Below are positions 6,633 to 50,261 of a DNA stretch of 50,791 nucleotides, piece by piece. The DNA lies in contig JAJCZW010000195.1 of the NCBI GenBank assembly GCA_029262155.1, positions 1 through 50,791 of the forward strand. Reading direction: 5' to 3'. Made by a program: the position numbers and the translations under genes. This DNA comes from Gemmatimonadota bacterium. Its GTDB lineage: Bacteria; Gemmatimonadota; Gemmatimonadetes; Gemmatimonadales; GWC2-71-9. The notes below the pieces were generated by a model that saw only the letters and a list, made by a program, of their open reading frames with translations, searched no databases and was not told the origin of the DNA. The number at the start of each line of letters is the position of its first letter. The stretch's first letter is position 1.

Positions 6633-6644
6633 CCGTGCCAAGCC

Positions 6645-9012: not shown

Positions 9013-9705
9013 ATGAAAGTTCTCGTCGTCGAAGATGATCGGAAGGTGGCCGGGTTTATCGAGCTTGGCCTCAAGGAAGAGGGCTATGTCGTTGATGTCG
9101 CCTCGGATGGCGAGGAGGCAACGATGATGGCCCACGTCTACCAATATGACGTGATTCTTCTGGACATCATGCTGCCGAAGAAGAACGGATTCCAGGTTGC
9201 GATGGAGTTGCGGCGGGAGGGACGGAGTACACCCATTCTCATGCTCACCTCCCGCGACGCCGTCGAAGATATTGTCCGCGGATTGGATGCGGGTGCCGAC
9301 GACTATCTGGCCAAGCCATTTCGGTTCGAGGAACTCCTTGCCCGGGTTCGAGCCCTTGCCAGACGGGGCGGCGCTGAGCGGATGGAAACCCTTCGCTTTG
9401 GGACGATCGTTATGGACCGGCTTCGTCACACTGTGACGGTGGTCGACCAGATCATCGACCTGACCGCAAAAGAGTTTCAGCTACTCGAGTATTTCCTCCT
9501 TCACCCGGAGGAGGTCGTGCGGAGGACTTCACTGTTGGAAAAGGTGTGGGATATGCATTTTGATCCCGAGAGCAACGTGGTCGACGTGCATATCGGGAAT
9601 CTCCGGCGGAAGCTGAAGCAAGCATCTGCGTTGGAGAAAATCGAGACCATCCGTGGGGTCGGGTTCGCCCTCCGGCCCACGACCGAGGCTGTCTCCCGAC
9701 GGTGA
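9013..9705 (+). CDS. OmpR/PhoB-family response regulator (CusR/CzcR-like)
   Basis: VLVVEDD, LLDIMLP, GADDYLAKPF, LTAKEFQLL, SNVVDVHIGNLRRKL, IETIRGVGF. Confidence 0.96.
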   Translation: MKVLVVEDDRKVAGFIELGLKEEGYVVDVASDGEEATMMAHVYQYDVILLDIMLPKKNGFQVAMELRREGRSTPILMLTSRDAVEDIVRGLDAGADDYLAKPFRFEELLARVRALARRGGAERMETLRFGTIVMDRLRHTVTVVDQIIDLTAKEFQLLEYFLLHPEEVVRRTSLLEKVWDMHFDPESNVVDVHIGNLRRKLKQASALEKIETIRGVGFALRPTTEAVSRR

Positions 9706-35782: not shown

Positions 35783-37311
35783 GACGAGCAGTAGGCGCGT
35801 TCATACTTCTCGCATGGGTTGCCTCACTTGGATGGCTCCTGTCGCGTACCTCTTCTGACCAGCGAAGCCTTGTGGCAGCCGGTCAGCGGCTTGCGCCCTT
35901 CTCGGGGTATTACACCGCCAAGTTGGGAGGGGAGCAGATTGGCCTCGGTACCGTTTTTACGGATACCACCGAGTCCTCCTTTCGGGTCAACAACCTCCTC
36001 TCGCTCGATCTGCTCATCCAGGGACAACCGATCCGTTTCGGGTATCGGTCTGATAGTTACTTCGATCGTGGACTGGCACTCCAGACCGGCGACGAGACCG
36101 TGAGCGATGGGACCGCCTCGACCCGATACACCATCGTATCAGATAGTAGCGATTCTGCCCGCATGCATCTGCGCACCGCGTCGCCGATGACCGCCGATCT
36201 GGGTGCTGACGTGGCGGGGTCGAGTCCAGCCCCGGCCACGCTCGCCCGTGCCATCCCCTATCAGATGGTTCTTGCTGATCGTCTTACCAATGACCTCGCA
36301 ACCCCCAACCAAGTCTTTGATCCGGCCGATGGCAGCCTCCGGTTTGACAACATTCGGGTCGTCGGCGAATCGACCTTCGTCGTGCCCGACAGCGCCGTCC
36401 TTGACCCAGAGGGCCACTGGCGCCCCGCCACGACCCTGACCGTCCGCGCGTGGCAGCTGGAGCATGCGCCCTACGGGCTCCCGACCTCGACCTGGGTCGA
36501 CAGCAGGGGCAACCTCGTAGCGGAGCAGAATCTGTTTGGTGTGGGATGGAACCGAACGGCATTCGAAATAGCCCGGAACAACTATCGATCGCGTGTGGCC
36601 ACCGACGGCATCACCATTACAGCCTCGTTGTCAGGCGCCAGACCCTGGGCTGGCTCTGGCCTTGCCCCACTTCCTGGGGATAGCCTCCGCCTCATGATGG
36701 GTCGGACCGACGACTGGCCATTGCCTCAGCCACTCCTCCGCGGTTTGGAGGGCGGTCGGCAGCGACTCGACCATGGGTACCTGATCTCCACGCGGACGAC
36801 TCCGCCGGCCGAAAGCGAGACCGCCCCCATGGGGTATAGCGTCCGGTATGTGGGGCGAGAGGTCGAGAGTGTTGTCACCGATCGGGCACGACGCCTCGCT
36901 GGCAAGGCCACCGATCGCCTCCTCATCACCAAGCGTCTGTTGGCGTGGGTCGCATCCAACATCGCGCTCGATACGTCGATGGGCGCACCGCTTCGCCCGC
37001 CTGACGTGTTAGCCGCCCAACGGGCTGGGAGCGACGGCCGTTCCCGGCTCCTCGCCGCGATGCTCCGATCAGAGCGCATCCCAGCGCGCGTGGTGACGGG
37101 CGTGGTGCTCACCGTGGAGGGACAGCTGGGGCATTCCTGGGTCGAGGTTTGGCTCGACGGATGGGTCGCAGCCGACCCCCAGTCTGGGACCCTCCCGGCC
37201 AGTCCTGCGCTCATCAGGCTTCGGGAAGGTGGGCGCAGTCGCCCGGTAGACCTCGTTCCCCTCATTGCAGCCCTTCGTGTTCAACCCTATCCCTGGCAGG
37301 TTCGTCGATGA
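35779..37311 (+). CDS. Membrane-anchored transglutaminase-like domain protein
   Basis: N-terminal TM; C-terminal LLAAMLRSERIPARVVTG...HSWVEVWLDGWVAADP. Confidence 0.85.
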   Translation: MRRAVGAFILLAWVASLGWLLSRTSSDQRSLVAAGQRLAPFSGYYTAKLGGEQIGLGTVFTDTTESSFRVNNLLSLDLLIQGQPIRFGYRSDSYFDRGLALQTGDETVSDGTASTRYTIVSDSSDSARMHLRTASPMTADLGADVAGSSPAPATLARAIPYQMVLADRLTNDLATPNQVFDPADGSLRFDNIRVVGESTFVVPDSAVLDPEGHWRPATTLTVRAWQLEHAPYGLPTSTWVDSRGNLVAEQNLFGVGWNRTAFEIARNNYRSRVATDGITITASLSGARPWAGSGLAPLPGDSLRLMMGRTDDWPLPQPLLRGLEGGRQRLDHGYLISTRTTPPAESETAPMGYSVRYVGREVESVVTDRARRLAGKATDRLLITKRLLAWVASNIALDTSMGAPLRPPDVLAAQRAGSDGRSRLLAAMLRSERIPARVVTGVVLTVEGQLGHSWVEVWLDGWVAADPQSGTLPASPALIRLREGGRSRPVDLVPLIAALRVQPYPWQVRR

Positions 37312-38063
37312 TCGTCATCCAGGATCTGACCAAAACGTACGGCAAGTTCACCGCAGTGAATGGGATCAGCCTCCACATTCCCCCAGGGCAACTCTTCGGG
37401 TTCCTCGGACCCAATGGCGCTGGCAAAACCACCACGATGCGGATGATCGCAGGGATATTGAAACCGACCGCGGGGACGATCGAAGTGGCCGGCCTCAACA
37501 TCGTGCGCTATCCGATGAGCGCCAAATCGAAGTTAGGGTACATCCCCGATCGGCCCTATGTGTACGACAAGCTCACCGGAGCGGAGTTCATGCGCTTTGT
37601 GGCCGCACTCTACGGCCAGGAAGGGAAAGGCATTGAGCGCCGTATCGATGAGCTACTCGACCTCTTCGAACTCACTCGCTGGAAGAACGAACTCACGGAA
37701 TCATACAGCCATGGCATGCGCCAGAAGCTGATCATCTCGAGTGCGTTGGTCCACCGTCCTGAAGTGATCGTCGTGGACGAACCGATGGTTGGCCTGGATC
37801 CCAAGAGTGGGAAACTCCTCAAGGATATCTTCCGTCACTTCGTGGGACTCGGGGGCACGGTCCTGATGAGTACGCACACGCTGGAGATCGCCGAATCGAT
37901 GTGTGACCGGATCGGCATCATCCAACACGGCCACATCATCGCCGAAGGCACGATGGATGAACTCCGCGTCCAGCATGACACCGACGCCACATTGGAGCAA
38001 CTGTTCCTCAAGTTGACGGGTGGTATCACGGAGCGAGAACTCGGAGCCATCCTCAGTGACTGA
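37308..38063 (+). CDS. ABC transporter ATP-binding protein
   Basis: GPNGAGKTT, YSHGMRQK, VVDEP, STH; ATGA coupling. Confidence 0.95.
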   Translation: MIVIQDLTKTYGKFTAVNGISLHIPPGQLFGFLGPNGAGKTTTMRMIAGILKPTAGTIEVAGLNIVRYPMSAKSKLGYIPDRPYVYDKLTGAEFMRFVAALYGQEGKGIERRIDELLDLFELTRWKNELTESYSHGMRQKLIISSALVHRPEVIVVDEPMVGLDPKSGKLLKDIFRHFVGLGGTVLMSTHTLEIAESMCDRIGIIQHGHIIAEGTMDELRVQHDTDATLEQLFLKLTGGITERELGAILSD

Positions 38064-39789
38064 GGATATCGGCCCTTCGGGTGGGAGGCACGGACACCCG
38101 ACCCCACCGACACAGCCCCACCTCTGGACGATCCTGATCCCCAAGTGGCAGAGCATGCTCGCGCGTGGACGCCAGGATCGGAGTCTAATCAGGCTGGTGC
38201 TCCTCGGTCTCATCGCCCTCATTTTCTGGGCCGCGGTCTTCGGGATCGCGTACCGTGTCATCGACTATTTCCAGGGCGTGGAAGAAATCGGCAACCTCCT
38301 TGCCGGCAAAGTATTGGGGATGACCCTTTTGGCGTTCAGCGGGGTCTTGTTGCTCTCCAACCTGGTCACCGCACTTTCGACTTTCTTTTTGGCGAAGGAC
38401 CTCGACATGCTGGTGGCGGCGCCAGTCGATTGGCTCCGCATCTACCTCGCCAAACTCAGTGAGACCCTGGTCCACAGCTCGTGGATGGTGGCACTGCTGA
38501 TTCTCCCGATCCTGAGTGCCTATGGAGTGGTATATGGTGGGGGGTGGCTTTTCCCCTTCGTGGCAATCGCGGCGCTCACACCCTACCTGCTTCTTCCCAC
38601 GGTGGTCGGCAGCGGCATCACCCTGATCCTGGTGAACGTTTTCCCTGCCCGTCGGACCCGAGACCTCCTGAGCCTCGTAGCGCTGGGAGCGGTTGGAGGG
38701 GTTGTACTCCTCTTACGTGTCGTCCGCCCGGAGCAGTTAGCCCGGCCCGAGGGGTTCAACAACCTGGTCGATTTCCTGGTGGTCCTTCGGGCACCAACGA
38801 ACCCGTTTCTCCCCAGCGAGTGGGCCTCCCAAGCCATCATGAATTGGCTCCTTGAGGTCGCCGACCCGCTCCCGCTCGCACTCCTATGGACCAGCGCGGG
38901 AGCATTCATCGTGCTAGGCGCCGCCCTCCATCGGCGGCTCTATGCGTCAGGTTTCTCGAAGGCCCAGGAGGGCGCGGAGAATTTTGTGCGGGGGCGCACC
39001 ATGTCGCGGATCCTTGCGCCGATGCTCGGTTGGTTACCGGCGACCCGTCGGGAGTTCATTCTCAAAGATCTCCGACTCTTCTTTCGAGACACCACGCAGT
39101 GGAGCCAACTCATTCTCCTTGCGGTACTCCTGATCGTCTACGTCTTCAATATTCGCGCATTGCCGATTTTCACCGGTGAACGGGTTCCGTTTACCCTGGT
39201 GACTCTCATCGCCTTTCTGAATCAAGGCCTTTCAGGGTTTGTGCTTGCCGCGATCGCGGCTCGATTCGTCTTCCCCTCGATCTCACTCGAAGGACGACAG
39301 CTCTGGCTACTCCGATCCAGCCCCCTCAATATGCGGGCGATGATGTGGAGCAAATACTGGATCGGGACGGCCCCACTGTTGGTCCTGGCGGTCGGGATCA
39401 CCGTTCTCACCAATGTGCTCCTCCGCGCCTCGCCGTTCATGATGGGGGTTAGCCTGCTGACGACTGTGGTGTTTACGCTAACGCTTGGTGCACTCGGTGT
39501 GGGGCTCGGGATCCTCTACCCCCAATTCGACACCGAAAACGCGGCCCAGATTCCCACAAGCTTTGGCGGATTGGTGTTCATGATGACGTCGATCAGCCTC
39601 CTCGCAGTGATCATCGTTATCGAGGCCACACCGGTCGCTAGCTACCTCCGGGCCCGCCAAGCAGGTACCGCACCTGGCCTCACCGGGACCCTGGTCTTGT
39701 CCCTCGGCCTCGTGGTCGCGATATGTGCCCTGACGATGTTCATGTCACTCCGGATCGGTATCCGCCGTTTGGAATCGCTGGAAGTCTAG
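38056..39789 (+). CDS. Putative ABC exporter permease (multi-TM)
   Basis: Many TM segments; KDLRLFFRD, SLEGRQLWLLRSSP, KYW motifs. Confidence 0.88.
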   Translation: MTEDIGPSGGRHGHPTPPTQPHLWTILIPKWQSMLARGRQDRSLIRLVLLGLIALIFWAAVFGIAYRVIDYFQGVEEIGNLLAGKVLGMTLLAFSGVLLLSNLVTALSTFFLAKDLDMLVAAPVDWLRIYLAKLSETLVHSSWMVALLILPILSAYGVVYGGGWLFPFVAIAALTPYLLLPTVVGSGITLILVNVFPARRTRDLLSLVALGAVGGVVLLLRVVRPEQLARPEGFNNLVDFLVVLRAPTNPFLPSEWASQAIMNWLLEVADPLPLALLWTSAGAFIVLGAALHRRLYASGFSKAQEGAENFVRGRTMSRILAPMLGWLPATRREFILKDLRLFFRDTTQWSQLILLAVLLIVYVFNIRALPIFTGERVPFTLVTLIAFLNQGLSGFVLAAIAARFVFPSISLEGRQLWLLRSSPLNMRAMMWSKYWIGTAPLLVLAVGITVLTNVLLRASPFMMGVSLLTTVVFTLTLGALGVGLGILYPQFDTENAAQIPTSFGGLVFMMTSISLLAVIIVIEATPVASYLRARQAGTAPGLTGTLVLSLGLVVAICALTMFMSLRIGIRRLESLEV

Positions 39790-39802: not shown

Positions 39803-40825
39803 CTACTCTGGATGCTTCCGGAAGATGTCCTCCAATACCACCCGATCGATCTTGCCGTCCATCCGTACTCGCACGTCGTAGTTTTCCCAGTACATGAAGT
39901 TCTTGAGGGCCGCAAGGAAGGTGGGGTTGGCAGTGCCCTGCGATGCTCCAAGCCACTTGTCGGGCTGGCCCTCCGGCTCCCGAAGGAGGATCGGCTCCAA
40001 TCGTGCAACCAGTGCGGGCGTGAGATCCAAGAGATCTTTCGGATCGCTCGGGAAGAAGTACAGTTTGTGGAGCGTGAGAAGCCGGTCGAGTTCGGCAATA
40101 GGATCGACCGCATCATAGACGCGGAGATCGATGAACCGATCGTTCGCCCCCAGGTAACCACCGCCAGCCCGTACCACGAGCAACGCGGCTGACTCCATAC
40201 CCCGCTTGTCCCCACCTCCCGCCTGACCCGCCTTCAGGGCCGCCAGCAACCTGTCCGCAAGTGGTCCCTCGGATGCCAGGAAGGAGGACGCCATGTTCGC
40301 CACAGTCTGGTCCGATACCATGATATTCGCCTGGACGGCAAACCCGCGACCCTGGATGGCAGCTCCCTTCCCGCCCAAGATGGAGCCGCCATGCCCATCA
40401 CCGACCCGTCCGCCGGCCCAGTCAAACGTGGTCGTGCCGGTAAAACTGGCGGCACCCCCATGCGAATCGACCAAGCCCACCTGACGGTCCGATAGCGACG
40501 TATCGCTCCGCATGATGATAGCGAGCGCTTCCGCCGCCGTCGCTCCTTCCGCGATCAACGTGAGGCCACGGTCACCGTACTCGGTGTTTGCGAGGCTCTG
40601 GGTGGCGACAGCCCCTATCCCGGCTTTGGCCCATGGAACAATGCCACCCACGTTGGGGAACTTCGACTGCACGGCCACACCGAGGTCACCGGTCACTGAA
40701 TCGAACGCGACGATGCTGTAGGTATGGGCGAGACGGTGGAAGTGTCCCGGCGGAGTCATCGGTTGCTGGGCGGCAAGAACGTTCGCCACGAGTAGACCGA
40801 AAGTTGGGATCAGCAGGCGCGGCAT
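39803..40825 (-). CDS. DUF1028 family (Ntn-hydrolase-like) exported protein
   Basis: HTYSIVAFD...GVAVQS, GAVATQS, GGDKRGMESAALLV, IDLRV. Confidence 0.9.
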   Translation of the reverse strand: MPRLLIPTFGLLVANVLAAQQPMTPPGHFHRLAHTYSIVAFDSVTGDLGVAVQSKFPNVGGIVPWAKAGIGAVATQSLANTEYGDRGLTLIAEGATAAEALAIIMRSDTSLSDRQVGLVDSHGGAASFTGTTTFDWAGGRVGDGHGGSILGGKGAAIQGRGFAVQANIMVSDQTVANMASSFLASEGPLADRLLAALKAGQAGGGDKRGMESAALLVVRAGGGYLGANDRFIDLRVYDAVDPIAELDRLLTLHKLYFFPSDPKDLLDLTPALVARLEPILLREPEGQPDKWLGASQGTANPTFLAALKNFMYWENYDVRVRMDGKIDRVVLEDIFRKHPE

Positions 40826-41030
40826 GGTAACTCCGTGGTCGGTGATGCCGAAAGATAGTCACACCCACCGGCGGCCATCCGCTGTGACGTCCGGGAGGTC
40901 ATTCCACCGTCCCGCCATCCTGCAGGTAGCCCGCGGCTGAATGATCCGTCGCCGCGATGATCCGGTACCTCAAAGGATCTCACACGGGCGAGGTTGATCC
41001 TGAAACCGAAACCAGGGATGCCAGGAGCCC

Positions 41031-41687
41031 ATGCCACAATTTCATACCCGTTCGACCTACCGACTGGCCCGCGTCGTGGTAGGGGTCCTTCCCGCCATCC
41101 TCCTCAGCCTCGGAGCACTCCGCCCAACGCCCCTCGCAGTGAGCCTGTCCCAAGCTGCGGCTCGCGTGCTCCCCGCCCCATCCGGATCCCGCGTCCTCCC
41201 AGCTGGGGAGATGGTCTGGCAGCGCTCATTGAACGACTGCGGGCCGGCATCGCTGGCAAACTACCTCCGTGCGAACGGCGCCGGGGGCAGCCACCTGCCG
41301 CCGGTACCGGATCTCGATTCTCTCGATCGTCTTGCGATCCTCACACCGACCGGGACTCGGTTGGGAGACCTTGCCGACGCCGCGACGAAAGCTGGCTGGC
41401 CGAGCTGGGTAGCGCGGGTTGATCCAACGGAGGGAGCTGCCTCGCTACGCGGCGACCGGTTGCCAGCCATTGCCTGGATCGAGCAATCTCACTTTGTGAC
41501 CCTGACGCGCCTAGTGGCCGGGGACTCCGTCGAAATGATCGACCCGATGCGCGGGCGCTTGCTGGTGTCATGGAATGGGTTGTTGGCGGTTTGGCGAGGC
41601 GAGTTCTTGAACCGAGAACGACCCCCTGCCGCTGCCTCCGCACGTTTCTTGTTTCCCTCTTCCCCTTTACCCAGGAGTCATTCATGA
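41031..41687 (+). CDS. Standalone C39 cysteine peptidase with an N-terminal signal/anchor
   Basis: Q...DCGPASL (oxyanion Gln, catalytic Cys), LPAIAW...HFV (His), IDP (Asp), WRG; AGGAG RBS; no ABC domains. Confidence 0.9.
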   Translation: MPQFHTRSTYRLARVVVGVLPAILLSLGALRPTPLAVSLSQAAARVLPAPSGSRVLPAGEMVWQRSLNDCGPASLANYLRANGAGGSHLPPVPDLDSLDRLAILTPTGTRLGDLADAATKAGWPSWVARVDPTEGAASLRGDRLPAIAWIEQSHFVTLTRLVAGDSVEMIDPMRGRLLVSWNGLLAVWRGEFLNRERPPAAASARFLFPSSPLPRSHS

Positions 41688-41965
41688 GGACTGTCCATCA
41701 CTTCGGCCTCGCGTTCCTGTTGGCACTCAGCATTGCGAGCCTCCCGGTAACGACCACCGCAGCGACAGAACGCACCCCAACCCCTCAGGCGGTTCAAGTC
41801 GAGGGCCGGGGACTCCTCAGCATCATTGGATGCGTGGGATGCGTGGCAGGAGGCTTGGCGATTGCAATGAATGGTGCGGCCGCTCTCCTCGCCGCTGCAT
41901 TCTCCGAAGGATCTGCCCTCGCCGTGGCCGGTTGCATTGCCATCTGCGCCGATGCCATAGGCTGA
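41684..41965 (+). CDS. Putative peptide precursor A (93 aa): signal peptide, pro-region, hydrophobic 4-Cys core
   Basis: AGGAG RBS; ATGA overlap with the C39 gene; QVEGRG followed by LLSIIGCVGC...CIAICADAIG. Confidence 0.85.
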   Translation: MRTVHHFGLAFLLALSIASLPVTTTAATERTPTPQAVQVEGRGLLSIIGCVGCVAGGLAIAMNGAAALLAAAFSEGSALAVAGCIAICADAIG

Positions 41966-41999
41966 TACCACCCCTACCACCTTCGGAAGGAGCAAATCG

Positions 42000-42305
42000 A
42001 TGTCTCCAAGACTGATGACTCTGCGACAGGGACTCGCCGCCCTGCTCTTCGCCTTTCCCCTCTTGGGGTTTGCGCCCCCAGCGACTGCCACAGCCGACGA
42101 CCCTTCTCCAACCGCGTCAATCGAGCAGGTGGACGCACACCAGGTCATCGGACGCGGGATTCTGGCGAAGCTCGCGTGCATTGCCTGCCTCGCGGGACTC
42201 TTGTCTGTGGCAGGGTTTACGGTGGGTGGCATTCTGATCACAGCACTTGCCTATCCCGAAGTCACCGCACTTTGCGGATTGGGATGCGCCGTTGCATTTG
42301 GTTGA
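42000..42305 (+). CDS. Putative peptide precursor B (101 aa), paralog of A
   Basis: AAGGAG RBS; signal ending ATA; QVIGRG followed by ILAKLACIAC...CGLGCAVAFG. Confidence 0.87.
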   Translation: MSPRLMTLRQGLAALLFAFPLLGFAPPATATADDPSPTASIEQVDAHQVIGRGILAKLACIACLAGLLSVAGFTVGGILITALAYPEVTALCGLGCAVAFG

Positions 42306-42324
42306 GCCGTCTCCGAGTGGCAAA

Positions 42325-42352
42325 GGCCCTCTCCCAGGCGAGGGGGAGGGTC
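42325..42352 (+). promoter_or_regulatory. GC-rich stem-loop after the precursor genes, covering the next RBS
   Basis: GGCCCTCTCCC-AGGCGA-GGGGGAGGGTC, an 11-bp stem with 2 G-U pairs; no U-tract. Confidence 0.65.
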
Positions 42353-42354
42353 CG

Positions 42355-42903
42355 ATGCTCGCACCACCGTCGATGTCGTCCGGGACGCGTTGGAAGGCAG
42401 GAGGTTTGCTCGGCGGATGTGGGCTCCTGGCGCTCTGGATCGCGCATGGGGTAGCCACCTCAAGGCTTGAGAAGATCGTCACACCATTTCCGGCCCACAA
42501 TCTCCGCGGTCAGCTGCCGAGTGGCGCCTCGTGGACCGGTGGAAGCGGTGGGGCGGAGATCCTCCTCTATGTCGATCAACACTGCGCCTACTGCAAAGAA
42601 GAGCTGCACGCCTGGTCGACCTCACTCGCGTTGACCTCAAGGACGCCAGCCCCTCGCGTCGTCTTGTCCCCACGCTCGGATACCCAGCACGACTCCTACC
42701 TTCCCTCTCGGTTTCGAGGAATGTGGATCCACGACCGTGACACCGTCATCGCTCGGGCGCTAGCCCTCAGAGGGGTCCCGACAACGGTCGTGATCATCGA
42801 TAACCGTGTGACCGCAATACGATCGGGCCTCACGTCGGCAGCAGCAAAAGACAGCCTGCTCCAGATCGTCAGCGTCTCGGGGCCGGCCGGAGGAGAGCTG
42901 TGA
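42355..42903 (+). CDS. Membrane-anchored thioredoxin-fold thiol-disulfide oxidoreductase
   Basis: TM segment, LLYVDQHCAYCKEEL (CxxC), LRGVPTTVVI (cis-Pro loop). Confidence 0.82.
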   Translation: MLAPPSMSSGTRWKAGGLLGGCGLLALWIAHGVATSRLEKIVTPFPAHNLRGQLPSGASWTGGSGGAEILLYVDQHCAYCKEELHAWSTSLALTSRTPAPRVVLSPRSDTQHDSYLPSRFRGMWIHDRDTVIARALALRGVPTTVVIIDNRVTAIRSGLTSAAAKDSLLQIVSVSGPAGGEL

Positions 42904-43574
42904 GTCCACCATTCAATACCACGAACGTCCGAAGGAGCAACCGGCTGGCTCACCAGCTTCAACTCTGTATTCCTACGATGAAAGAGATCGCGGTGGAACG
43001 CCCTTTAATCCCACCCATCCTGGTCGCGACGATCCTCGCACTGGGTGCGGCAGGTACGCTGGCGCCTCTGCTCCCATTGGCTTTCCGGAATTCCTCGCCC
43101 GCGCTGGCGGTCTCACTTCGTCAGTGGCTCTGGATCATCGGATTCCTCACTCCCCTCATTGTGGTGCTCAAAGGGACACTCTCTACCGGGCTCGCCTGGG
43201 GATGGCTGACCCTGAACGGCGTACCGGTCGCCCCACGCGCCCTCTTTTCCATCCTCTTTTATGGAGAGGCAGTGCTTGGCTTGCAAGGTGCCGTTATCGG
43301 GGCAGCACTCCGGTTTCTGGGGACGGCACGACTTCGCACACCAGCCGACCTTTTCCTGCCAACCGGAGCCGATCTCTTTGGCTTGCCCCATCACCCGTTG
43401 GCCCACGCCGTGGTTCAGCATCTCTCCATCTTTCATGTAGCATGGTTCACACTCCTGCTCGTCGGTCTGCCGGCTCTCACCACGTGCTCCCGACGCGTCG
43501 CAGGAAGCACTGCGCTCTTCCTCTGGACGGTATCGGTAGGAATAGATGCGGTGCGCGCGTGGGGACAGGTATGA
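42900..43574 (+). CDS. Multi-pass membrane protein, Yip1-like
   Basis: About 5 TM segments, LSIFHVAWFTLLLVGL; overlapping start and stop with both neighbours. Confidence 0.65.
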   Translation: MSPPFNTTNVRRSNRLAHQLQLCIPTMKEIAVERPLIPPILVATILALGAAGTLAPLLPLAFRNSSPALAVSLRQWLWIIGFLTPLIVVLKGTLSTGLAWGWLTLNGVPVAPRALFSILFYGEAVLGLQGAVIGAALRFLGTARLRTPADLFLPTGADLFGLPHHPLAHAVVQHLSIFHVAWFTLLLVGLPALTTCSRRVAGSTALFLWTVSVGIDAVRAWGQV

Positions 43575-44293
43575 CCGAAGCCGTCGCAGTGACCGATCTC
43601 GCGGTCCGCTACCCAGGCTTCACATTGCAGCCAGTTTCGCTCCGCATGGACCTCGGCGAGCGCGTCGCCCTCCTGGGGGCCAATGGATCTGGCAAGACAA
43701 CACTCCTCAACGCCATTGCAGGACGACGACCCGGGCATGGTGGGCAGATGCAGATCGTAGGACACCCACCCAACCCACCACCGTGGACTCTGAGCCAGTC
43801 GATCGGGTTCCTCGGCGACCATCTCCTCGGACTCGGATGGATGACCGTCGCAGAACATTTGCAATTCCTTCGTCCATTCTACCCCCGGTGGGACAGCGCA
43901 TATGTCGAGGAGCTGGTCGACCGACTTCAGATTCCTTGGCACACAAAGCTCGGCCATCTCTCGCGCGGGATGACGGTCAAACTTGGATTTGTCAGTGCGG
44001 AAGCCTTTCGCCCCCCGGTCCTTCTCATGGATGAACCAACGGCAGGCCTTGATCCGGTCGTCCGCAATGAACTCCTGGACGTCTTAGACAGTGCCTGCGG
44101 TCTTGGGCCTCGACTCGTCCTATTCTCAACCCATCTCCTCGAAGACGTGGAAACACTTGGAACACGGGTCATAGTCCTCCATGAGGGCCACGTTGTTATC
44201 GATCGATCGGTCGACGAGATCCAAGCCGATTCACATCAACCTTTTCACACCATTCTTCGGGGGCTCGTAACACTCCATGGACACGCGGCATAG
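43571..44293 (+). CDS. ABC transporter ATP-binding protein
   Basis: GANGSGKTT, LSRGM, LLMDEPTAGLDP, STH. Confidence 0.94.
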   Translation: MTEAVAVTDLAVRYPGFTLQPVSLRMDLGERVALLGANGSGKTTLLNAIAGRRPGHGGQMQIVGHPPNPPPWTLSQSIGFLGDHLLGLGWMTVAEHLQFLRPFYPRWDSAYVEELVDRLQIPWHTKLGHLSRGMTVKLGFVSAEAFRPPVLLMDEPTAGLDPVVRNELLDVLDSACGLGPRLVLFSTHLLEDVETLGTRVIVLHEGHVVIDRSVDEIQADSHQPFHTILRGLVTLHGHAA

Positions 44294-44978
44294 GGCACTT
44301 CTCGCACTGGAACTCAGGCGGACTGCCCCAGGGACGTTTCGGTTTCTCGCGGTTGTCGCGCTGATCACGTTGGTCGCAACCCTCGTCGGGCAGGCAACAC
44401 CAGATACCCTGGCTATGGTCTGGACGGGACTCACGACGGGATACGTGGTACAGCTTCCACTCGCAGCGCTGCGCGATAAGATTGAGGGTGGAATGGAATT
44501 CCTTTGTAACCTCCCCATTCCACGATCCGGCCTAGCGACCGCTCGCCTCCTCGCAGGTGGCGTCCTGGCGCTCCCGGCGGCAGCGCATCTCTTCTTGGCC
44601 GCCTGGTATGTATTCCCCCTTCTTGAACTCCACCGGGGCGCCCTGTCACTTCTTTCCATCTTCGGAATCGCGTGGATCGGGTTCGCCGCGATCATCAACA
44701 CGATGACCGCACTGATCATCCGATATCGGATCCAGGACCTCACCAGTACGCCGCTGGTGATCGCCACCCTCGGAGGATTAGGCTTCGTCATGCTTCTCGA
44801 TCGCCTCGTGCCCGACCCGCAGGCGCTGCTTAGAACGCTCCTTCACCAGTGGTGGCTCCCTCCCATGGTGGTTGGCATCCTCCTGGCTGGTTCGCTTCTC
44901 CTGCTGGCGATTGCCCGCTGGGTCATGATTCGAGGCTTTACTGGATACACACCGCGAGGTGATTCGATCAGTTGGTAA
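44277..44978 (+). CDS. ABC-2 type permease
   Basis: About 6 TM segments; DKIEGGMEFLCNLPIPRSGL motif. Confidence 0.85.
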   Translation: MDTRHRALLALELRRTAPGTFRFLAVVALITLVATLVGQATPDTLAMVWTGLTTGYVVQLPLAALRDKIEGGMEFLCNLPIPRSGLATARLLAGGVLALPAAAHLFLAAWYVFPLLELHRGALSLLSIFGIAWIGFAAIINTMTALIIRYRIQDLTSTPLVIATLGGLGFVMLLDRLVPDPQALLRTLLHQWWLPPMVVGILLAGSLLLLAIARWVMIRGFTGYTPRGDSISW

Positions 44979-45130
44979 TCCCGTTCCATTGGGACAAGGG
45001 ACGGTGTGGAGGGACAGCCCGAGGAGGGGTGGGTCGAGATCTCCAAGACCGGGCAGGCGGCACCATTGAGTTTGCTGGGGCCTCACTGTTCCTCTAGACT
45101 TCAGATCACGATCCAACTTCCGGAGTCTGG

Positions 45131-46285
45131 ATGTCACCCCTCGATCCCTCGGCCAAGCCGATTCGGTACTGGCAGCGCCGTGGGACCCTGATCGCAGCTC
45201 TCTATCTCGCGGTGATGCTGGCCATCATTGAGGTGGGGCAAGTGTACTTCCGCTCCGCCCTAGAGGACTGGCCGATCTCGATCGGGGAAGCGGCTGTCCG
45301 AACGGTCGCATCCTGGATCTTGATCGGAGCCTTGCTCCCGCTCGTCCTCCTCATGGCAGAGCGACTTCCCTTGGCCCGCGGCGAACGGGTACGAGCCACC
45401 AGCATCCACATGGGTGTCTCAATCCTTTTTGGCCTCATTCATCTCAGTGGGATGGGCGTTGTGATCTGGCTCCAAGGCCACCAGGATCATCCCTTCACGG
45501 ACAATCTGGCATGGCTGCTCTCGGCGTACCTTGGCCTCGACATGTTGATCTACTGGGCCATCATCGGCGTGTCCCACACAGTTCGGTTCTATCATGAAGC
45601 ACGGGCACACTCGGTCAAAGCCGCTCGACTCGAGGTCAGCCTGAGTGAGGCACGATTGCGGGCGTTGCGAGCACAATTGAACCCACATTTTCTCTTTAAC
45701 ACGCTGAATGCCGTGAGTGGATTGGCCATTCGACATGGAGACGAGGACACTGCCGACGCACTCGGCCAGGTCAGCGAACTGATGCGATCGGCGATGGATG
45801 ACGATCGGGATCAGGAGATCACCCTTTCGGCCGAGCTCGACTTCACGACACGGTACCTCAACTTGCAACATCTCCGCTTTTCGGACCGGCTCTCGGTCGA
45901 TGTACAGGTCGGCGACGGGCTCGAAACAACGTTGGTTCCGGCCCTTCTGTTGCAACCACTCGTCGAGAATGCCCTCCTACACGGTATTGCGAATCATCCC
46001 GGCCCGGGGCGGGTGGCCATTACCGCCAGAGCCGTGGAAGGAGATAGGCTGCGAATTGAGGTCGAAGACTCGGGCCCAGGATTTGGTCCAGCAGCGTCGC
46101 GACGACCCGGCATCGGCATCGGGCTACGCAATACCCAGACGAGGCTGGCCCTGCTCTATCCCGATCAGCACTTTTTTGCCATCGGTTCCGCTCCCTCGGG
46201 AGGCGGCTTAGTCACCATTGACATCCCACTCAAGCACCAGCACGAGACCGATCCCGCTCGGCAGGCGGTGAGCCATGGGCCCTGA
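45131..46285 (+). CDS. LytS/YehU-type membrane sensor histidine kinase
   Basis: N-terminal TMs; LRAQLNPHFLFNTLN, LLQPLVENALLHG, GIGLRN. Confidence 0.95.
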   Translation: MSPLDPSAKPIRYWQRRGTLIAALYLAVMLAIIEVGQVYFRSALEDWPISIGEAAVRTVASWILIGALLPLVLLMAERLPLARGERVRATSIHMGVSILFGLIHLSGMGVVIWLQGHQDHPFTDNLAWLLSAYLGLDMLIYWAIIGVSHTVRFYHEARAHSVKAARLEVSLSEARLRALRAQLNPHFLFNTLNAVSGLAIRHGDEDTADALGQVSELMRSAMDDDRDQEITLSAELDFTTRYLNLQHLRFSDRLSVDVQVGDGLETTLVPALLLQPLVENALLHGIANHPGPGRVAITARAVEGDRLRIEVEDSGPGFGPAASRRPGIGIGLRNTQTRLALLYPDQHFFAIGSAPSGGGLVTIDIPLKHQHETDPARQAVSHGP

Positions 46286-47099
46286 CGGCATTCGAACGCT
46301 AATCGCAGACGATGAACCGCTGGCCCGGGAGGGCCTCAAGGCACGGCTGGCGCGGGAGCCCGATATCAATATCGTCGGAGAGACGAAAGATGGCCCGGAG
46401 ACGGTCGCCGCCATCCGGTCACTCCAGCCTGACCTCGTCTTGCTCGATATTCAGATGCCCGGTATGAATGGCTTCGACGTCCTCGGCGCACTCGGCGATG
46501 ATCCGATGCCGATTGTGGTCTTTGTTACCGCGTTCGACCAGTTTGCCCTTCGCGCCTTTGACGCGCATGCCGAGGACTATCTCCTCAAACCCTTCACCGC
46601 AACGCGACTCCAGGAAGCGCTCTCCCGCGTCCGTCGCGAAATCGCCCGTGCAGAGACTCTGGCGGCGCATGACCGGTTCGCTGGACTTCTCGATACTTAT
46701 CGTTCAGAGGTGACGCGGGCCGGAGTGACCGGGGCACCAGCCACCGACACCCCCGAGAGCCCTCCCACTGGCCCCCATTCTTGGACGGCCCGCTTCACCG
46801 TCAAAGATAGCGAACGCTTTCTGATCATCCCGGTTGAGAGTGTCGATTGGATTGAGGCAGCGGGAAACTATGCCGTATTGCACACTTCAGGGGGAGCCTA
46901 CAAGATCCGCGATACGATGACTCACCTTGCGAAGGCGCTCAACCCCTTGCATTTCGCTCGAATCCATCGTTCGGCAATCGTTCAGATCAGCAAAGTCAAA
47001 GAGATCCGCCCGGAGTGGCACGGGGATTTCGATGTCGAATTGATCACGGGAACGATTGTACGGATGAGTCGTCACTACCGCGAGCGGCTGCTTACGTAG
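46275..47099 (+). CDS. LytTR-family response regulator
   Basis: ADDEPLAR, LDIQMP, VFVTAFD, DYLLKP; WIEAAGNY, FARIHRSAIV, SRHYR. Confidence 0.96.
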   Translation: MGPDGIRTLIADDEPLAREGLKARLAREPDINIVGETKDGPETVAAIRSLQPDLVLLDIQMPGMNGFDVLGALGDDPMPIVVFVTAFDQFALRAFDAHAEDYLLKPFTATRLQEALSRVRREIARAETLAAHDRFAGLLDTYRSEVTRAGVTGAPATDTPESPPTGPHSWTARFTVKDSERFLIIPVESVDWIEAAGNYAVLHTSGGAYKIRDTMTHLAKALNPLHFARIHRSAIVQISKVKEIRPEWHGDFDVELITGTIVRMSRHYRERLLT

Positions 47100-47643: not shown

Positions 47644-48222
47644 TCAGTCCACGACCTCAGACAGCGCTCGCTCCAGCCGAGCTTGGTCCTCTGCGCTGAC
47701 GTTCGCGGCGCCAGTCAGGACCGGGGCCGGAACGGGAGCAGCCGCTTGTCGCCGCATCAAGATGGCCGCGAGGAGGGTACCTGCGGCGGTGATGGCAAGC
47801 CCAGGCACGAGATATCCGGCAAGGTTGAATCCCTCGGGCGGGGGAGCCATGAGGATCTCCTCTCCGTATTCAGTCACAAACGCATCGATGATCTGGTCCG
47901 GTGTCGCTCCATTCTCGTGGAGGGCCACCACCTGCCGATGCAGCGCCGGAGAGACGGTACATGTGAAGTCGGTCGTGCGGCAGGTGAAGATGTCGAGATT
48001 GCAGCCGCAAGTACACTTCAGTTTGTGTTCGACTGTTTGAATGATTCCGTTGTTATCTCCCTCGACCACCGCGGGGCGGGACTGCACGGCCTCCGGGATA
48101 CTGAGACGGTCCGCCGGGGCCTCGGGGTCGCCGCCGGGCGATCCTTGCGTCGCTGCGTGGAGGGCTCGCCCGCCAACCAGCAGGGCACTGATACTTGTGA
48201 AAAAGGAACGTCGAGAAATCAT
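47644..48222 (-). CDS. ccmH: Cytochrome c biogenesis protein CcmH-like
   Basis: LKCTCGC, IIDAFVTEYGEEILMAPP, C-terminal TM; downstream of ccmF. Confidence 0.85.
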   Translation of the reverse strand: MISRRSFFTSISALLVGGRALHAATQGSPGGDPEAPADRLSIPEAVQSRPAVVEGDNNGIIQTVEHKLKCTCGCNLDIFTCRTTDFTCTVSPALHRQVVALHENGATPDQIIDAFVTEYGEEILMAPPPEGFNLAGYLVPGLAITAAGTLLAAILMRRQAAAPVPAPVLTGAANVSAEDQARLERALSEVVD

Positions 48223-50261
48223 ACCGGTACCGCCTCCTCCACCGCAGGTTCAACCGTTGCACCCTGCGTGCGCGTGAGCCCCGACCGAACCGCAGTTCGG
48301 CCTCCACCGGGCCACATGGTTATTAACCCACCAAGCACCAACACCCCACCACCAAACCACAGCCACCACACCAGTGGGTTCACTGTGACGGCATAGTTGG
48401 CTCGCTCTGTCCCACCGATGGATCCGGCGTACACCACGTAGAGATCTTCACGAAGCGTACTGCGAATCCCGACTTCTGTAGACGGCTCAAAGGTCTTGCG
48501 GTTAAAGCTGTCCACATGTTGACGCTTCTCAGAGGAGACGATCCCGGCGGCCTTTCCATCGATCTCCACCTGCAGTGTCGCCGCGGAGACAATCCGATTA
48601 AGCGCCGTGTACTGCGACACGCCGAGATGCGTCAATCGATACACGTGCCCAAAGGGGCTCCGGATTTCCGTAAACTCGCCCGGTGCGAGCGTGGCCTCTT
48701 GGGTAATCTTGAAGCTTGAGCCAACGAACGCCGCGAAATAAATCAGGATACCGGCATGCACGAGGTATCCCCCGTAGCGTCGACGATTCCGATTGATCAG
48801 CAAGCCCAAGGCAACCGGGAAGGATTCCCCGTGCATCCGAATCCGTGCGCGTACACCGCGATAAAACTCCTGCAGAATGGTGCCTGCTACGAACCCAATC
48901 AGACCCAGGGCCAGCACGGCTGAGCCTTCGCGCATTCCCATCCCAAACAACACGCTCGCCGTGACGAGTCCCAGAAGGACGGGGAAGATGAACTGACGTC
49001 TGAGGTTCGCCAGCGAACTCTTCCGCCAGGCGATCAGGGGCCCGATCCCTGTCAGCGCAAGCAAGAGCAGGCCGAGGGGGACGTTGACGCGATTAAAGAA
49101 TGGGGGCCCGACCGTGATCTTTACTCCGCGCACGGCTTCGGTCAGGATGGGGAAAAGCGTACCCCAGAGCACCGAGAAGGCGATGCCAACAAAGATCAGA
49201 TTGTTGAAGAGAAAAGCCGCTTCCCGACTCGCCACCGATTCGAGTTGTGCCTCCGGTTCCAGTTGGGGCCACCGAGTGTAGAGCAGGGTAAATCCAAAGA
49301 CACCCGCCAGCACCAGGAAGGCGAGAAAGAAATATCCTACGTTGGATTGGGCGAAACTATGGACGCTCGCAATCACACCTGATCGAGTGATGAAGGTTCC
49401 GAAGATGCTGAGCATAAAAGTCCCAAAGATCAACCCAAGATTCCAACGCTTGAGCATTCCCCGTTTCTCTTGGATCATGACGGAGTGGAGAAAGGCCGTC
49501 ATCGTCAGCCAAGGGAGAAGGCTGGCGTTCTCCACCGGATCCCATGCCCAGTAACCACCCCATCCCAGCTCGACGTAGGCCCACCACATCCCGAGGGTAA
49601 TTCCGACTGACAAGAAGAGCCACGAGAGCAACGTCCACTTGCGGATGGCGACGATCCAACCGCTATCGAGTCGGCGAGAGAGGAGAGCCGCGATGCCGAA
49701 CGCGAAGGGTATTGTGATACTGATATAACCGAGATAAAGCATCGGCGGGTGGATGACCATGCCAGGGTTCTGGAGTTGGGGATTCAGGCCATTCCCGTCC
49801 GCCGGTGTAAACCCCAGCCGGTCAAACGGGTTCGCTGCAAAGAGCATAGTGGCAACAAAAAAGACCACCACCGCTCCCGTGACCGCTGCCACGGTCGGCA
49901 TGAGTTCCTTGTGCCGTCGACTTGTCAGCGCCTGGGCCAGCGCCGCAAACACCGACAGCACCGTCGCCCAGAAGAGCAGGCTTCCCTTCTGACCGGCCCA
50001 GAAGGCAGTGACCACATAGGAGTCGGGGAGATTGCGAGAGGTATAGCTGGCGACGTATTCGATGTTGAAGTCGTGGGTAATGAGCCCTTGCCACAATGCG
50101 ATCGAGGCGACCAGCAACGCGGCACAGGTTGCGTACACCGAACGGATCGTGCTGGAGGCAAGCTCGGGCCGTGTCCGCCATGCTCCGGAAAAACCAACCA
50201 CGGCTCCCCAGAGCCCTGCCAACAACGCCATCCATAACGCGAACTCCCCGAGCAAGGTCAT
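48219..50261 (-). CDS. ccmF: Heme lyase CcmF
   Basis: WAGQKGSLL, GLNPQLQ, HPPMLYLGY, WGGYWAWDPVENAS, SVHSF. Confidence 0.97.
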   Translation of the reverse strand: MTLLGEFALWMALLAGLWGAVVGFSGAWRTRPELASSTIRSVYATCAALLVASIALWQGLITHDFNIEYVASYTSRNLPDSYVVTAFWAGQKGSLLFWATVLSVFAALAQALTSRRHKELMPTVAAVTGAVVVFFVATMLFAANPFDRLGFTPADGNGLNPQLQNPGMVIHPPMLYLGYISITIPFAFGIAALLSRRLDSGWIVAIRKWTLLSWLFLSVGITLGMWWAYVELGWGGYWAWDPVENASLLPWLTMTAFLHSVMIQEKRGMLKRWNLGLIFGTFMLSIFGTFITRSGVIASVHSFAQSNVGYFFLAFLVLAGVFGFTLLYTRWPQLEPEAQLESVASREAAFLFNNLIFVGIAFSVLWGTLFPILTEAVRGVKITVGPPFFNRVNVPLGLLLLALTGIGPLIAWRKSSLANLRRQFIFPVLLGLVTASVLFGMGMREGSAVLALGLIGFVAGTILQEFYRGVRARIRMHGESFPVALGLLINRNRRRYGGYLVHAGILIYFAAFVGSSFKITQEATLAPGEFTEIRSPFGHVYRLTHLGVSQYTALNRIVSAATLQVEIDGKAAGIVSSEKRQHVDSFNRKTFEPSTEVGIRSTLREDLYVVYAGSIGGTERANYAVTVNPLVWWLWFGGGVLVLGGLITMWPGGGRTAVRSGLTRTQGATVEPAVEEAVPV

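Follow-up and report, generated by a model that had tools for sequence, protein, structure and literature searches.

Class II bacteriocins and microcins are made with a leader whose last two residues are G-G (or G-A, G-S), with a hydrophobic residue at position -4. Their C39 peptidase forms the cytoplasmic N-terminus of an ABC exporter and their precursors have no Sec signal. Glycocins, exemplified by sublancin 168 and glycocin F, fold as a helix-loop-helix with two nested disulfides, and their loci provide a thiol-disulfide oxidoreductase together with C39 activity. In the twin CX3C/CX9C proteins (the small Tims and the Cox17 family) the Cys motifs also lie on antiparallel helices joined by two nested disulfides, which a dedicated oxidoreductase puts in place in the oxidising setting of the mitochondrial intermembrane space. 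Self-protection against peptide toxins by an ABC transporter is known from the Pmt system of staphylococci and from YknWXYZ of Bacillus subtilis. FapD, from the Pseudomonas Fap amyloid system, is a C39 peptidase that is exported by Sec and active in the periplasm (PMC5557850). Both FapD and NapP, from the Neisseria nap island, are stand-alone C39 proteins with an export signal that act outside the cytoplasm, and, as far as the available sections of these reports go, their substrates are also exported by Sec and non-canonical recognition sequences are suspected (PMC5557850, PMC11798529).

The locus described here shares features with each of these systems and differs from each. Like class II systems it encodes small unmodified peptides with Gly/Ala-rich, hydrophobic cores containing GxxxG motifs, a putative leader that closes with a Gly motif after a hydrophobic residue, a C39 peptidase and, in the same operon, an ABC system; disulfides, proposed for the cassette peptides, occur in some class II members, and the tandem arrangement of different, possibly complementary, peptide genes in one operon resembles that of the two-peptide class IIb bacteriocins. 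In contrast to class II systems, the C39 peptidase is a separate anchored protein, the precursors carry a Sec-type signal peptide ahead of the leader, the motif is mostly G-x-G rather than G-G, and the cores are essentially uncharged. The likeness to glycocins comprises the oxidoreductase, the C39 peptidase and the proposed nested disulfides, whereas the cores here exceed those of glycocins in length and, by far, in hydrophobicity, carry CxxC and CxxxC motifs and are preceded by Sec signals. The twin CX3C/CX9C proteins offer a structural analogy only, with no homology, since they are soluble and eukaryotic and have other spacings and functions. As with FapD and NapP, an export signal is predicted on the C39 protein; however, the FapF-type outer-membrane channel of those systems has no counterpart seen in the cassette, the proteins processed there are amyloid subunits or cationic peptides rather than four-Cys hydrophobic pairs, and thioredoxin-like or ABC genes are not described in the available parts of those reports (PMC5557850, PMC11798529). 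The cassette ATPase is closest to PmtA, and a membrane protein faintly reminiscent of Yip1/YknW precedes the ABC pair, but the scores are far below the family cut-offs and no YknX-like periplasmic adaptor was seen.

A seven-gene cassette in Gemmatimonadota

The window, a 50,791-nt stretch of DNA from a Gemmatimonadota bacterium, contains the following features.

41031-41687, + strand: stand-alone C39 cysteine peptidase, 218 aa (PF03412 at 33.4 bits, where the cut-off is 22; E 4.5e-8)
41684-41965, + strand: precursor A, ORF of 93 aa, with a signal peptide at about residues 1-22 and a Pro/Thr spacer
41798-41812, + strand: junction of precursor A, V39-E-G41-R-G43
41813-41962, + strand: core of precursor A, with C50, C53, C84 and C88
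42000-42305, + strand: precursor B, ORF of 101 aa, with a signal peptide at about residues 1-30 followed by a spacer
42144-42158, + strand: junction of precursor B, V49-I-G51-R-G53
42159-42302, + strand: core of precursor B, with C60, C63, C92 and C96
42355-42903, + strand: thiol-disulfide oxidoreductase of the thioredoxin fold, anchored by a hydrophobic segment at its N-terminus; active site C-A-Y-C
42900-43574, + strand: polytopic membrane protein of no named family, 224 aa, about four hydrophobic segments
43559-44293, + strand: ABC transporter ATP-binding protein, ABC-2/DrrA-like (Pfam ABC_tran, E 2e-21)
44277-44978, + strand: membrane permease, partner of the ATPase, 233 aa, five hydrophobic segments by hydropathy scan

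These seven tightly packed genes (41031-44978) encode, in order, the C39 peptidase, precursors A and B, the thioredoxin-fold CxxC protein, the membrane protein, the ATPase and the permease, and the same order recurs in 33 Gemmatimonadota loci. The start codon of precursor A overlaps the stop codon of the C39 gene in an ATGA, and precursors A and B are each preceded, 8-10 nt 5' of the ATG, by a Shine-Dalgarno-like AGGAG or AAGGAG. The thioredoxin-fold gene probably starts at the ATG at 42355, within a frame that is open from 42247. Scanning of 40700-45200 gave no promoter-like sites and a single terminator-like site, which lies in gene B, a count lower than that expected from shuffling. A look-up of sequencing runs returned one DNA run with 0.95 of the sampled words, and no RNA run was listed, an outcome that has no bearing on expression. 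Immediately beyond the cassette, at 45131-47099, lie genes for a LytS-type histidine kinase (PF06580) and a LytTR-type regulator.

The cassette is patchily distributed, occurring in 21 of the 401 sampled genomes of the phylum and in four of 100 close relatives. Tandem, diverged precursors number two to five per locus by HMM, with more discernible by eye. The A-type gene is directly followed by one of a different type, both in the window and throughout the 33 Gemmatimonadota loci, in agreement with the pairing of two different peptides noticed in the original prediction.

The four-cysteine peptide family

Both precursors were recovered at the predicted place with the predicted anatomy: the signal peptide is followed by a spacer and a G-R-G junction, after which comes an uncharged core that has four cysteines. 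Core A comprises the 50 residues after G-R-G, with Cys at positions 7, 10, 41 and 45, no Lys or Arg, one Asp and one Glu; core B has 48 residues, with Cys at 7, 10, 39 and 43, one Lys and one Glu. The cores are strongly hydrophobic (GRAVY 1.76 for A and 1.80 for B) and a hydropathy scan predicts segments of membrane-spanning grade in each. The two translations have CxxC[VL]AG and a C-terminal CxxxCAxA[IF]G in common, and their 35% identity over 71 columns (BLASTP, E 1e-8) identifies precursors A and B as real paralogues. They are the only copies of the family in the genome from which the window derives.

Word-indexed homologue searches with precursor A or the C39 protein as query returned nothing beyond the query itself. 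The family was recovered by an exhaustive profile search of 1.84 billion representatives, and every one of the 36 small proteins found in this way combines a signal peptide, G-x-G and CxxC...CxxxC. The original prediction had made its case depend on conservation of the Cys pattern and the junction in homologues, and both are indeed conserved: none of the four Cys varies across an alignment of 42 sequences, and neither does the first Gly of the junction. The corresponding residues of precursor A (G41, C50, C53, C84 and C88) are invariant in two alignments with relatives, as are G51, C60, C63, C92 and C96 of precursor B in an alignment with its relatives, and exactly four core Cys are present in 88 of the 92 family copies from the window and 34 related loci. 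By these counts the four-Cys and junction pattern lies far beyond chance. Signal peptides are similarly general, with an n-region bearing Lys or Arg and a hydrophobic h-region ahead of the spacer in 79 of 87 precursors. Across the family the cores are rich in Gly and Ala and have a median GRAVY of 1.43.

The junction is sharply conserved, as opposed to the spacer before it, which is long and poorly conserved. A G-x-G lies no more than 14 residues before CxxC in 79 of 88 copies, and in 62 of those 79 a Val or Ile stands two residues before the first Gly. Since [V/I]-x-G-x-G, with R, Q, A, S, T or N, among others, as the middle residue, is all that is kept across the family, the QV-x-GRG motif originally put forward is too narrow: the site itself is conserved but neither the Gln nor the Arg is, and G-R-G is only one of its forms. 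Most copies lack a canonical G-G at the junction, although a few paralogues carry a canonical double-glycine site, V-V-G-G-Q or V-E-G-G-Q, in the same register. In the register of these canonical paralogues, position -1 would be occupied by R, Q, S or A, something not usually seen with known C39 peptidases.

No bacteriocin model was matched in Pfam or NCBIfam scans. All the family members whose annotation was looked up are either unnamed or labelled 'hypothetical protein', and no published description of the four-Cys family was found in full-text literature searches. On the evidence of these searches the family is unnamed and almost confined to Gemmatimonadota.

Predicted structure and disulfide pattern

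The cores had been expected to be helical hairpins. AlphaFold2 models agree that they are helical, with a pLDDT of about 90 for both, but give three helices instead of a plain two-helix hairpin (residues 43-62, 65-73 and 77-92 in precursor A; 54-71, 75-84 and 86-100 in precursor B, with a core pLDDT of 87-94), in addition to an N-terminal helix at residues 4-18 of A and 4-22 of B. The long cores are thus predicted to consist of two Cys-bearing helices joined by a short middle helix, while the short variants, in which only 18-22 residues separate the Cys motifs, would fit a plain hairpin.

Throughout the family the head between G-x-G and CxxC is 6-7 residues long and the tail after CxxxC most often has five, so that both Cys motifs lie at matching depths from flush ends, as would suit a stapled hairpin. 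From this spacing arithmetic, the most likely pairs would be nested, namely C50-C88 and C53-C84 in A and C60-C96 and C63-C92 in B.

A Foldseek comparison of the precursor A model with the PDB gave no match at E <= 0.001, and the best score from an ESM Atlas look-up of precursor A, 0.80, was below the usable range. Prediction of a complex between core A and core B scored 0.02 against a mark of 0.32, a value that speaks neither for nor against binding.

The C39 peptidase

The first gene of the cassette encodes a protein with a single hydrophobic segment at its N-terminus (residues 12-30 by hydropathy scan) followed by the peptidase domain. Arg-rich sequence precedes this segment in all four C39 orthologues, and from the positive-inside rule we infer that the peptidase domain faces outside the cytoplasm. 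Residues Q64, C70, H154 and D171 are invariant in the four orthologues. Among solved double-glycine peptidases, a profile of the orthologues finds the domains of PCAT1 (4ry2, E 1e-10), LahT (6mpz) and ComA (3k8u), and in the alignment with PCAT1 D-C-G-P-A falls on the active-site D-C-G-A-A and H-F-V on H-F-V. With a papain-like domain and the Gln, Cys, His and Asp residues in place, the product of 41031-41687 is, as judged from these alignments, a member of family C39.

The link between this protein and the peptides is strong because family members lie directly downstream on the same strand in 34 of the 35 loci retrieved with the C39 protein alignment alone as query, the sole exception being a C39-ABC fusion from Actinomycetes. 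Conversely, a C39 orthologue precedes the precursors in 35 of 35 sources. We propose the C39 protein as the enzyme that cuts the junction, acting outside the cytoplasm; the association and the intact active site are directly visible in the sequences, and from them we infer cleavage at or next to the junction.

The remaining genes of the cassette

The thioredoxin-fold gene is present in 33 of 35 sources. The window copy has a weak Pfam Thioredoxin_2 match, below the gathering score, and among 10 orthologues AhpC-TSA is matched by six, Redoxin by five and Thioredoxin_2 by four. The CxxC and a V-P at the cis-Pro position are invariant in the 10, and on this basis the product of 42355-42903 is a thioredoxin-fold protein with the CxxC and cis-Pro of its kind. 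Both reductases and oxidases are found among the AhpC-TSA and Redoxin-type families, which makes either direction of the chemistry possible.

The polytopic membrane protein, encoded in 33 of 35 sources, has no Pfam match. Its NCBIfam match to YknW_fam (E 0.0084) is far below the cut-off, and Yip1 matches one of 10 orthologues (E 0.001). We propose that it is a partner of the ABC transporter; a role as a DsbB/VKOR-type re-oxidase of the thioredoxin-like protein was considered and rejected, as the protein is without conserved Cys. The ATPase, a soluble subunit of 244 aa without a C39 or membrane domain, is likewise found in 33 of 35 sources, and its best NCBIfam match is PmtA, the ATPase for export of phenol-soluble modulins (E 1e-36, below the cut-off). 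The permease matches nothing in Pfam or NCBIfam, and an orthologue directly follows the ATPase gene in 30 of 35 sources.

Pfam scans of the ORFs judged to be genes between 30623 and 50261 gave no glycosyltransferase, nor was one found among the conserved neighbours of related loci. The cassette peptides are not glycocins, since an S- or O-glycosyltransferase is lacking from the cassette and the scanned flanks, and kinship with glycocins is not supported beyond topology. Neither the cassette ORFs nor the conserved neighbours match an outer-membrane family, and nothing in the cassette was recognised as a way of crossing the outer membrane that these diderms have.

Proposed function and alternative explanations

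The topology of the precursors, the C39 peptidase and the thioredoxin-like protein is consistent with maturation outside the cytoplasm. Tandem diverged precursors, the pairing of an A-type with a second type, a patchy distribution and a PmtA-like ATPase are all bacteriocin-like traits. On balance we favour, with some confidence and with genomic context as the basis for the functional steps, a reading in which the peptides are exported by Sec, cut by the C39 peptidase and stapled by disulfides outside the cytoplasm, and act as multi-peptide bacteriocin-like agents from which the producer is protected by its ABC transporter. The N-terminal signal peptide would direct each precursor to Sec for export, whereupon the membrane-anchored C39 peptidase would cut at or next to [V/I]-x-G-x-G outside the cytoplasm and free a core of about 50 aa. 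The anchored thioredoxin-fold protein may then form the disulfides that tie the CxxC helix to the CxxxC helix. A-type and B-type peptides together would attack the membranes of competitors, and, by analogy, the membrane protein and the ABC-2 transporter would clear the peptides from the membrane of the producer, serving immunity or export. Several observations count against this reading, among them the mostly non-canonical junction with its unusual position -1, the lack of an outer-membrane route in the cassette, the ambiguous chemistry of the thioredoxin-like protein, the membrane protein and permease that match no family, and the empty Foldseek comparison.

It is unlikely, though far from negligible, that the peptides are non-toxic components, that is, stapled membrane or surface peptides akin to hydrophobins, PSMs or Fap that help to build or alter the envelope or a biofilm matrix, with the C39 protein as assembly protease and the ABC transporter as exporter. 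FapD, the only characterised Sec-exported C39 peptidase as far as the accessible part of that report indicates, serves the secretion of amyloid fibres and not killing (PMC5557850); closeness of the ATPase to the PSM exporter PmtA, uncharged Gly/Ala-rich cores and the lack of a recognisable immunity protein family in Pfam and NCBIfam scans of the cassette point the same way. However, a distribution of 21 in 401 genomes and tandem copies that diverge and vary in number fit an accessory competition locus better, the confident helical models and four invariant Cys count against an amyloid-type assembly, and no FapF-like or other outer-membrane protein is seen in the cassette. The hydrophobicity of the cores is such that the peptides could also stay in the inner membrane of the producer as small membrane proteins. 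It is conceivable, if rather improbable, that they are two-helix inner-membrane proteins, uncleaved or cleaved by signal peptidase only, that are accessory to the ABC transporter or another complex and in which G-x-G is a structural turn. The membrane-spanning-grade segments predicted in both cores would suit such a role, the CxxC and the CxxxC of a membrane hairpin would come to lie on the periplasmic side, and the genes are translationally coupled to those for membrane proteins. Yet an intact C39 peptidase lies immediately upstream in every one of the 35 sources, some paralogues have a canonical V-V-G-G at the very same position, a poorly conserved spacer that meets a sharp junction is the anatomy of a leader, and a variation from two to five or more copies is not what one expects of the subunits in a fixed complex.

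Double-glycine peptides are known to act as signals in combination with LytTR regulators, and the PF06580 kinase and LytTR-type regulator directly downstream in the window would invite the same reading here, with the peptides as secreted quorum-sensing pheromones sensed by the adjacent pair. This option, which the original prediction had included, we hold to be very improbable: none of 38 related loci scanned, among them two loci of the same genus with about 2.5 kb beyond the permease, has a homologue of the kinase or regulator beside the cassette, an uncharged hydrophobic core of 50 residues is unlike known pheromones, and a signal does not need several diverged paralogues. Since the kinase and regulator lack synteny with the cassette at other loci, quorum sensing was set aside as the main reading. 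Although the four Cys are invariant and set in two knuckle-like motifs, as would suit metal binding, it is hardly credible that they bind a metal or cofactor in small membrane metallopeptides without disulfides, given that the operon consistently includes a thioredoxin-fold CxxC protein of its own, that the export signals place the peptides in an oxidising compartment and that no other metal-handling gene is seen in the cassette.

Implications

Should the peptides prove to be Sec-exported, C39-cut and bacteriocin-like, they would constitute the first bacteriocin class defined for Gemmatimonadota and the first clear set of substrates for FapD-like periplasmic C39 peptidases. The rule that peptides of the double-glycine type are cut by the ABC exporter at the cytoplasmic face would need to be widened, and periplasmic C39 peptidases, whose targets in the Fap system are still unclear, would gain a defined substrate motif. 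An uncharged helical bundle clasped by disulfides would in turn be a new scaffold among membrane-active peptides. We tentatively suggest, as a real but uncertain possibility, that the cassette embodies an undescribed route by which diderms mature antibacterial peptides, in which Sec export is followed by release from a combined signal and leader through a membrane-anchored, outward-facing C39 peptidase that reads [V/I]-x-G-x-G, and by stapling through a dedicated oxidase. The products would be uncharged, membrane-soluble helical peptides that carry a twin-Cys clasp and form obligate A/B sets. The cassette would unite parts that are usually found apart, namely a Sec signal, an extracytoplasmic C39 leader peptidase and a private disulfide enzyme. 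With seven genes and unmodified products of 50 residues, it is compact and testable.

Soils, sediments and biofilms harbour Gemmatimonadota in abundance, yet these bacteria are seldom brought into culture, and very little is known of how they compete. Genome mining would overlook the family wherever the tool demands a C39 domain fused to an ABC exporter or discards candidates with a signal peptide. Genes annotated as 'microcin' by antiSMASH, in a Nif11/TIGR03798 context, are reported from marine Gemmatimonadota in the available part of one study (PMC11316326). A related arrangement of the cassette occurs in one locus from Neomarinimicrobiota.

Two four-cysteine precursors and their family

Precursors A and B are small proteins encoded side by side, in which a basic and then a hydrophobic N-terminal stretch is followed by a spacer rich in proline, threonine and alanine, a junction (V-E-G-R-G in A, V-I-G-R-G in B) and a strongly hydrophobic core (GRAVY about 1.8 each). 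They and their neighbours are encoded as follows.

37149-38063: ATPase of a second, upstream ABC system
38020-39789: PF16949 (ABC_tran_2) membrane protein of the same system
39803-40825, - strand: DUF1028 protein, weak C-terminal peptidoglycan-binding match
41031-41687, + strand: stand-alone C39 peptidase directly upstream of A (PF03412, E 4.5e-8, above cut-off)
41684-41965, + strand: A, 93 aa; start codon overlaps the stop codon of the upstream gene
42000-42305, + strand: B, 101 aa
42355-42903, + strand: thioredoxin-fold protein with C-A-Y-C
42900-43574, + strand: membrane protein, four hydrophobic segments
43559-44293, + strand: ABC ATPase, top match PmtA, below cut-off
44277-44978, + strand: permease, five hydrophobic segments
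45131-47099: LytS-type histidine kinase (PF06580) and LytTR/BtsR-like response regulator, directly after the cassette
47644-50261, - strand: ccmH and ccmF (cytochrome c maturation), about 5 kb from the thioredoxin-like gene

Shine-Dalgarno-like sequences precede the A and B genes, and the genes downstream of them (42355-42903 to 44277-44978) overlap or nearly do so. Recomputation gave the same values as the original prediction for core length (50 aa in A, 48 aa in B), core cysteine positions (7, 10, 41 and 45 in A; 7, 10, 39 and 43 in B) and core charges (one Asp and one Glu in A; one Lys and one Glu in B). The observation of paired four-cysteine precursors is confirmed; its interpretation is partly supported and is considerably extended by gene context.

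A and B are paralogues (35% identity, E 1e-8), the only family copies in their own genome (3.2 Mb, 259 contigs), and match no Pfam or NCBIfam model. A profile of the two, searched against 1.84 billion representative proteins, returned 39 matches at E <= 1e-3, namely A, B, 36 small proteins and one 2554-aa repeat protein, which was set aside as spurious. All 36 small relatives (90-139 aa) share this layout, CxxC...CxxxC included, and in a 42-sequence alignment the four cysteines and the first junction glycine are invariant, the second glycine being kept in at least 90%. The names of ten relatives that were looked up offer nothing beyond 'hypothetical protein', and the family was not met with in full-text literature searches; a survey of marine Gemmatimonadota mentions antiSMASH-annotated 'microcin' genes that may overlap with it (PMC11316326).

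The window and 34 related loci together encode 92 distinct peptides, 88 of which have CxxC...CxxxC with exactly four core cysteines; the exceptions are a peptide cut by a contig end, an apparent frame break, a C-x4-C variant and a weak match from Neomarinimicrobiota. Two more divergent precursors at one related locus (L031, 7192-7614 and 7654-7947), with four cysteines and a canonical V-V-G-G-Q, escaped the family HMM. They account for the 'gap' that separates the thioredoxin-like gene from the last precursor recognised there, and similar gaps of 600-900 bp occur in many Longimicrobiales loci, so that precursor copy numbers are minima. At two other loci both paired peptides run past the usual end, by G-A-D-K-L-W (L007 1096-1797, identical to L056) or by G-V-D-E-L-L or G-A-D-E-L-L (L054 6589-7301); this tail may serve as another signal for processing or sorting.

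The junction and the predicted core fold

The cysteine pattern first noted in A and B is conserved, but the shared 'GRG' junction proposed with it is too specific: the middle residue of G-x-G is free across the family, which makes GRG a local accident. G-x-G occurs within 14 residues ahead of CxxC in 79 of the 88 peptides, at a distance to the first cysteine of six residues in 45 cases and seven in 23; valine or isoleucine stands two residues ahead of the first junction glycine in 62/79, and the commonest residue after the motif is tryptophan. At the corresponding positions several paralogues instead carry V-E-G-G-Q or V-V-G-G-Q, a textbook double-glycine site, which lines up the invariant first glycine with position -2 of canonical leaders and the V/I with -4. 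Two candidate scissile bonds are possible, one after G-x-G and one after G-x (the canonical register, in which the core starts with glycine); under either, position -1 is non-canonical in some family members.

Given family alignments, AlphaFold2 yields confident models of the two cores (core pLDDT about 90). Their proposed helical nature is supported, but the plain hairpin is not, as a middle helix is predicted in both A (helices 43-62, 65-73 and 77-92) and B (54-71, 75-84 and 86-100), with CxxC in the first helix and CxxxC in the last. Sequence arithmetic favours the proposed nested disulfide clasp on three counts. The head from G-x-G to CxxC has 6-7 residues and the tail beyond CxxxC most often five (40/88), which with flush ends would set the two motifs opposite each other. 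Spacings within the motifs are invariant and the stretch between them spans 18-31 residues; the short variants (18-22 residues, 20/88) would fit a plain hairpin lacking the middle helix. The proposed clasp topology is in common with glycocins, from which the cassette differs in having no glycosyltransferase.

Conservation of the cassette

Clear peptide matches were found in 4 of 100 close relatives, each time as a tandem pair between the C39 and thioredoxin-like genes. The C39 alignment alone, searched against Bacteria and Archaea with one genome per species, yielded 35 loci (33 in Gemmatimonadota, of the Gemmatimonadales and Longimicrobiales, one in Neomarinimicrobiota and one in Actinomycetes); four duplicated previously found loci and were counted once. 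ORFs matching the peptide-family HMM lie directly downstream of C39 on the same strand in 34/35, the sole exception being the Actinomycetes locus, a C39-ABC fusion. Gene clustering of the 35 sources, two of them contigs no longer than 6.2 and 7.3 kb, recovered C39 in 35, the thioredoxin-like protein, membrane protein and ATPase in 33 each and the permease in 30. Gene order is fixed, with an A-type gene first and then another type. Of 401 genomes sampled evenly across the phylum, 21 carry the peptide family, among them that of the window; positives are concentrated in one taxonomic family (14/70), against only 2/166 in the family to which the window belongs. At L049 an A-type gene (6577-6843) lacks the family pattern beyond the first cysteine motif and looks frame-broken, with the B-type gene following only after 2.5 kb (9365-9775); this is possibly a decaying or rearranged cassette copy.

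Predicted site of maturation

The catalytic Gln, Cys, His and Asp are invariant in four C39 orthologues, whose profile aligns with PCAT1, LahT and ComA in the peptidase domain. Both the C39 and the thioredoxin-like protein have a single N-terminal hydrophobic segment with basic residues ahead, and by the positive-inside rule their catalytic domains are predicted to face outward. A K/R n-region together with a hydrophobic h-region is present in 79 of 87 precursors. The thioredoxin-like protein keeps CxxC and the cis-proline, with His, Tyr, Trp or Phe before the second cysteine. Aromatic residues or histidine at this position are commoner in oxidases (DsbA, PDI) than in CxPC reductases; in Pfam, however, the protein matches models of the AhpC-TSA and Redoxin type, so that this putative oxidoreductase may be an oxidase or a reductase.

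A precedent for C39 action outside the cytoplasm is published: FapD, a C39 peptidase bearing a Sec signal, works in the periplasm and, as its authors note, may recognise a non-canonical site (PMC5557850); Neisseria NapP is proposed to act likewise (PMC11798529). The outward-facing C39 would be common to the Fap, Nap and four-cysteine systems, the last having other substrates and partners. A related arrangement beyond Gemmatimonadota occurs in a Neomarinimicrobiota MAG (L050 5956-8123). Its anchored C39 gene precedes a small ORF with the ending ...D-V-D-G-S-G-W-x5-C, which then breaks frame and has a hydrophobic continuation in another frame; a second peptide has V-V-G-G and two cysteines only.

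Possible functions

Bacteriocin loci are usually marked by tandem, diverged peptide genes in variable number, private enzymes with an ABC-2 transporter, and patchy distribution. The cassette has tandem, diverged peptide genes whose number varies between loci, has a protease and an oxidoreductase of its own in the same operon as an ABC-2 transporter, and is scattered across the phylum. For these reasons, and for the A-then-other gene order, a Sec-dependent multi-peptide bacteriocin matured outside the cytoplasm is ranked first and considered probable, if only by a little. The uncharged, GxxxG-rich cores also resemble two-peptide bacteriocins and class II microcins. The system is proposed to work like double-glycine bacteriocin systems, but departs from two defining traits of that class, as its C39 is separate from the exporter and its precursors carry signal peptides.

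Against the bacteriocin reading, a route across the outer membrane is missing, and hairpins as hydrophobic as these may well remain in the membrane of the producer. That the peptides serve in the envelope or a matrix is a credible minority explanation, and that they are uncleaved membrane subunits is rather improbable; pheromones would be a decidedly long shot, and metal binding more doubtful still.

Neighbouring genes

No related locus, those of the same genus included, has a kinase or LytTR regulator of this kind next to its cassette; the two genes therefore probably do not belong to it. A role for the thioredoxin-like protein as CcmG of the ccmH/ccmF system appears unlikely, since its gene accompanies the cassette in other genomes. 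The PF16949 gene directly precedes the C39 gene in two same-genus loci and is lacking in other families; a DUF1028 gene between the second ABC system and C39 occurs in the window's genome only. Directly upstream of C39 at L026 (3407-5764), and at the matching position of about 20-26 loci from Longimicrobiales, lie a gene for asparagine synthase (- strand) and a short ORF resembling AhpC/TSA (+ strand); this second thioredoxin-fold ORF, absent from the window, could be a member of the cassette in that order.
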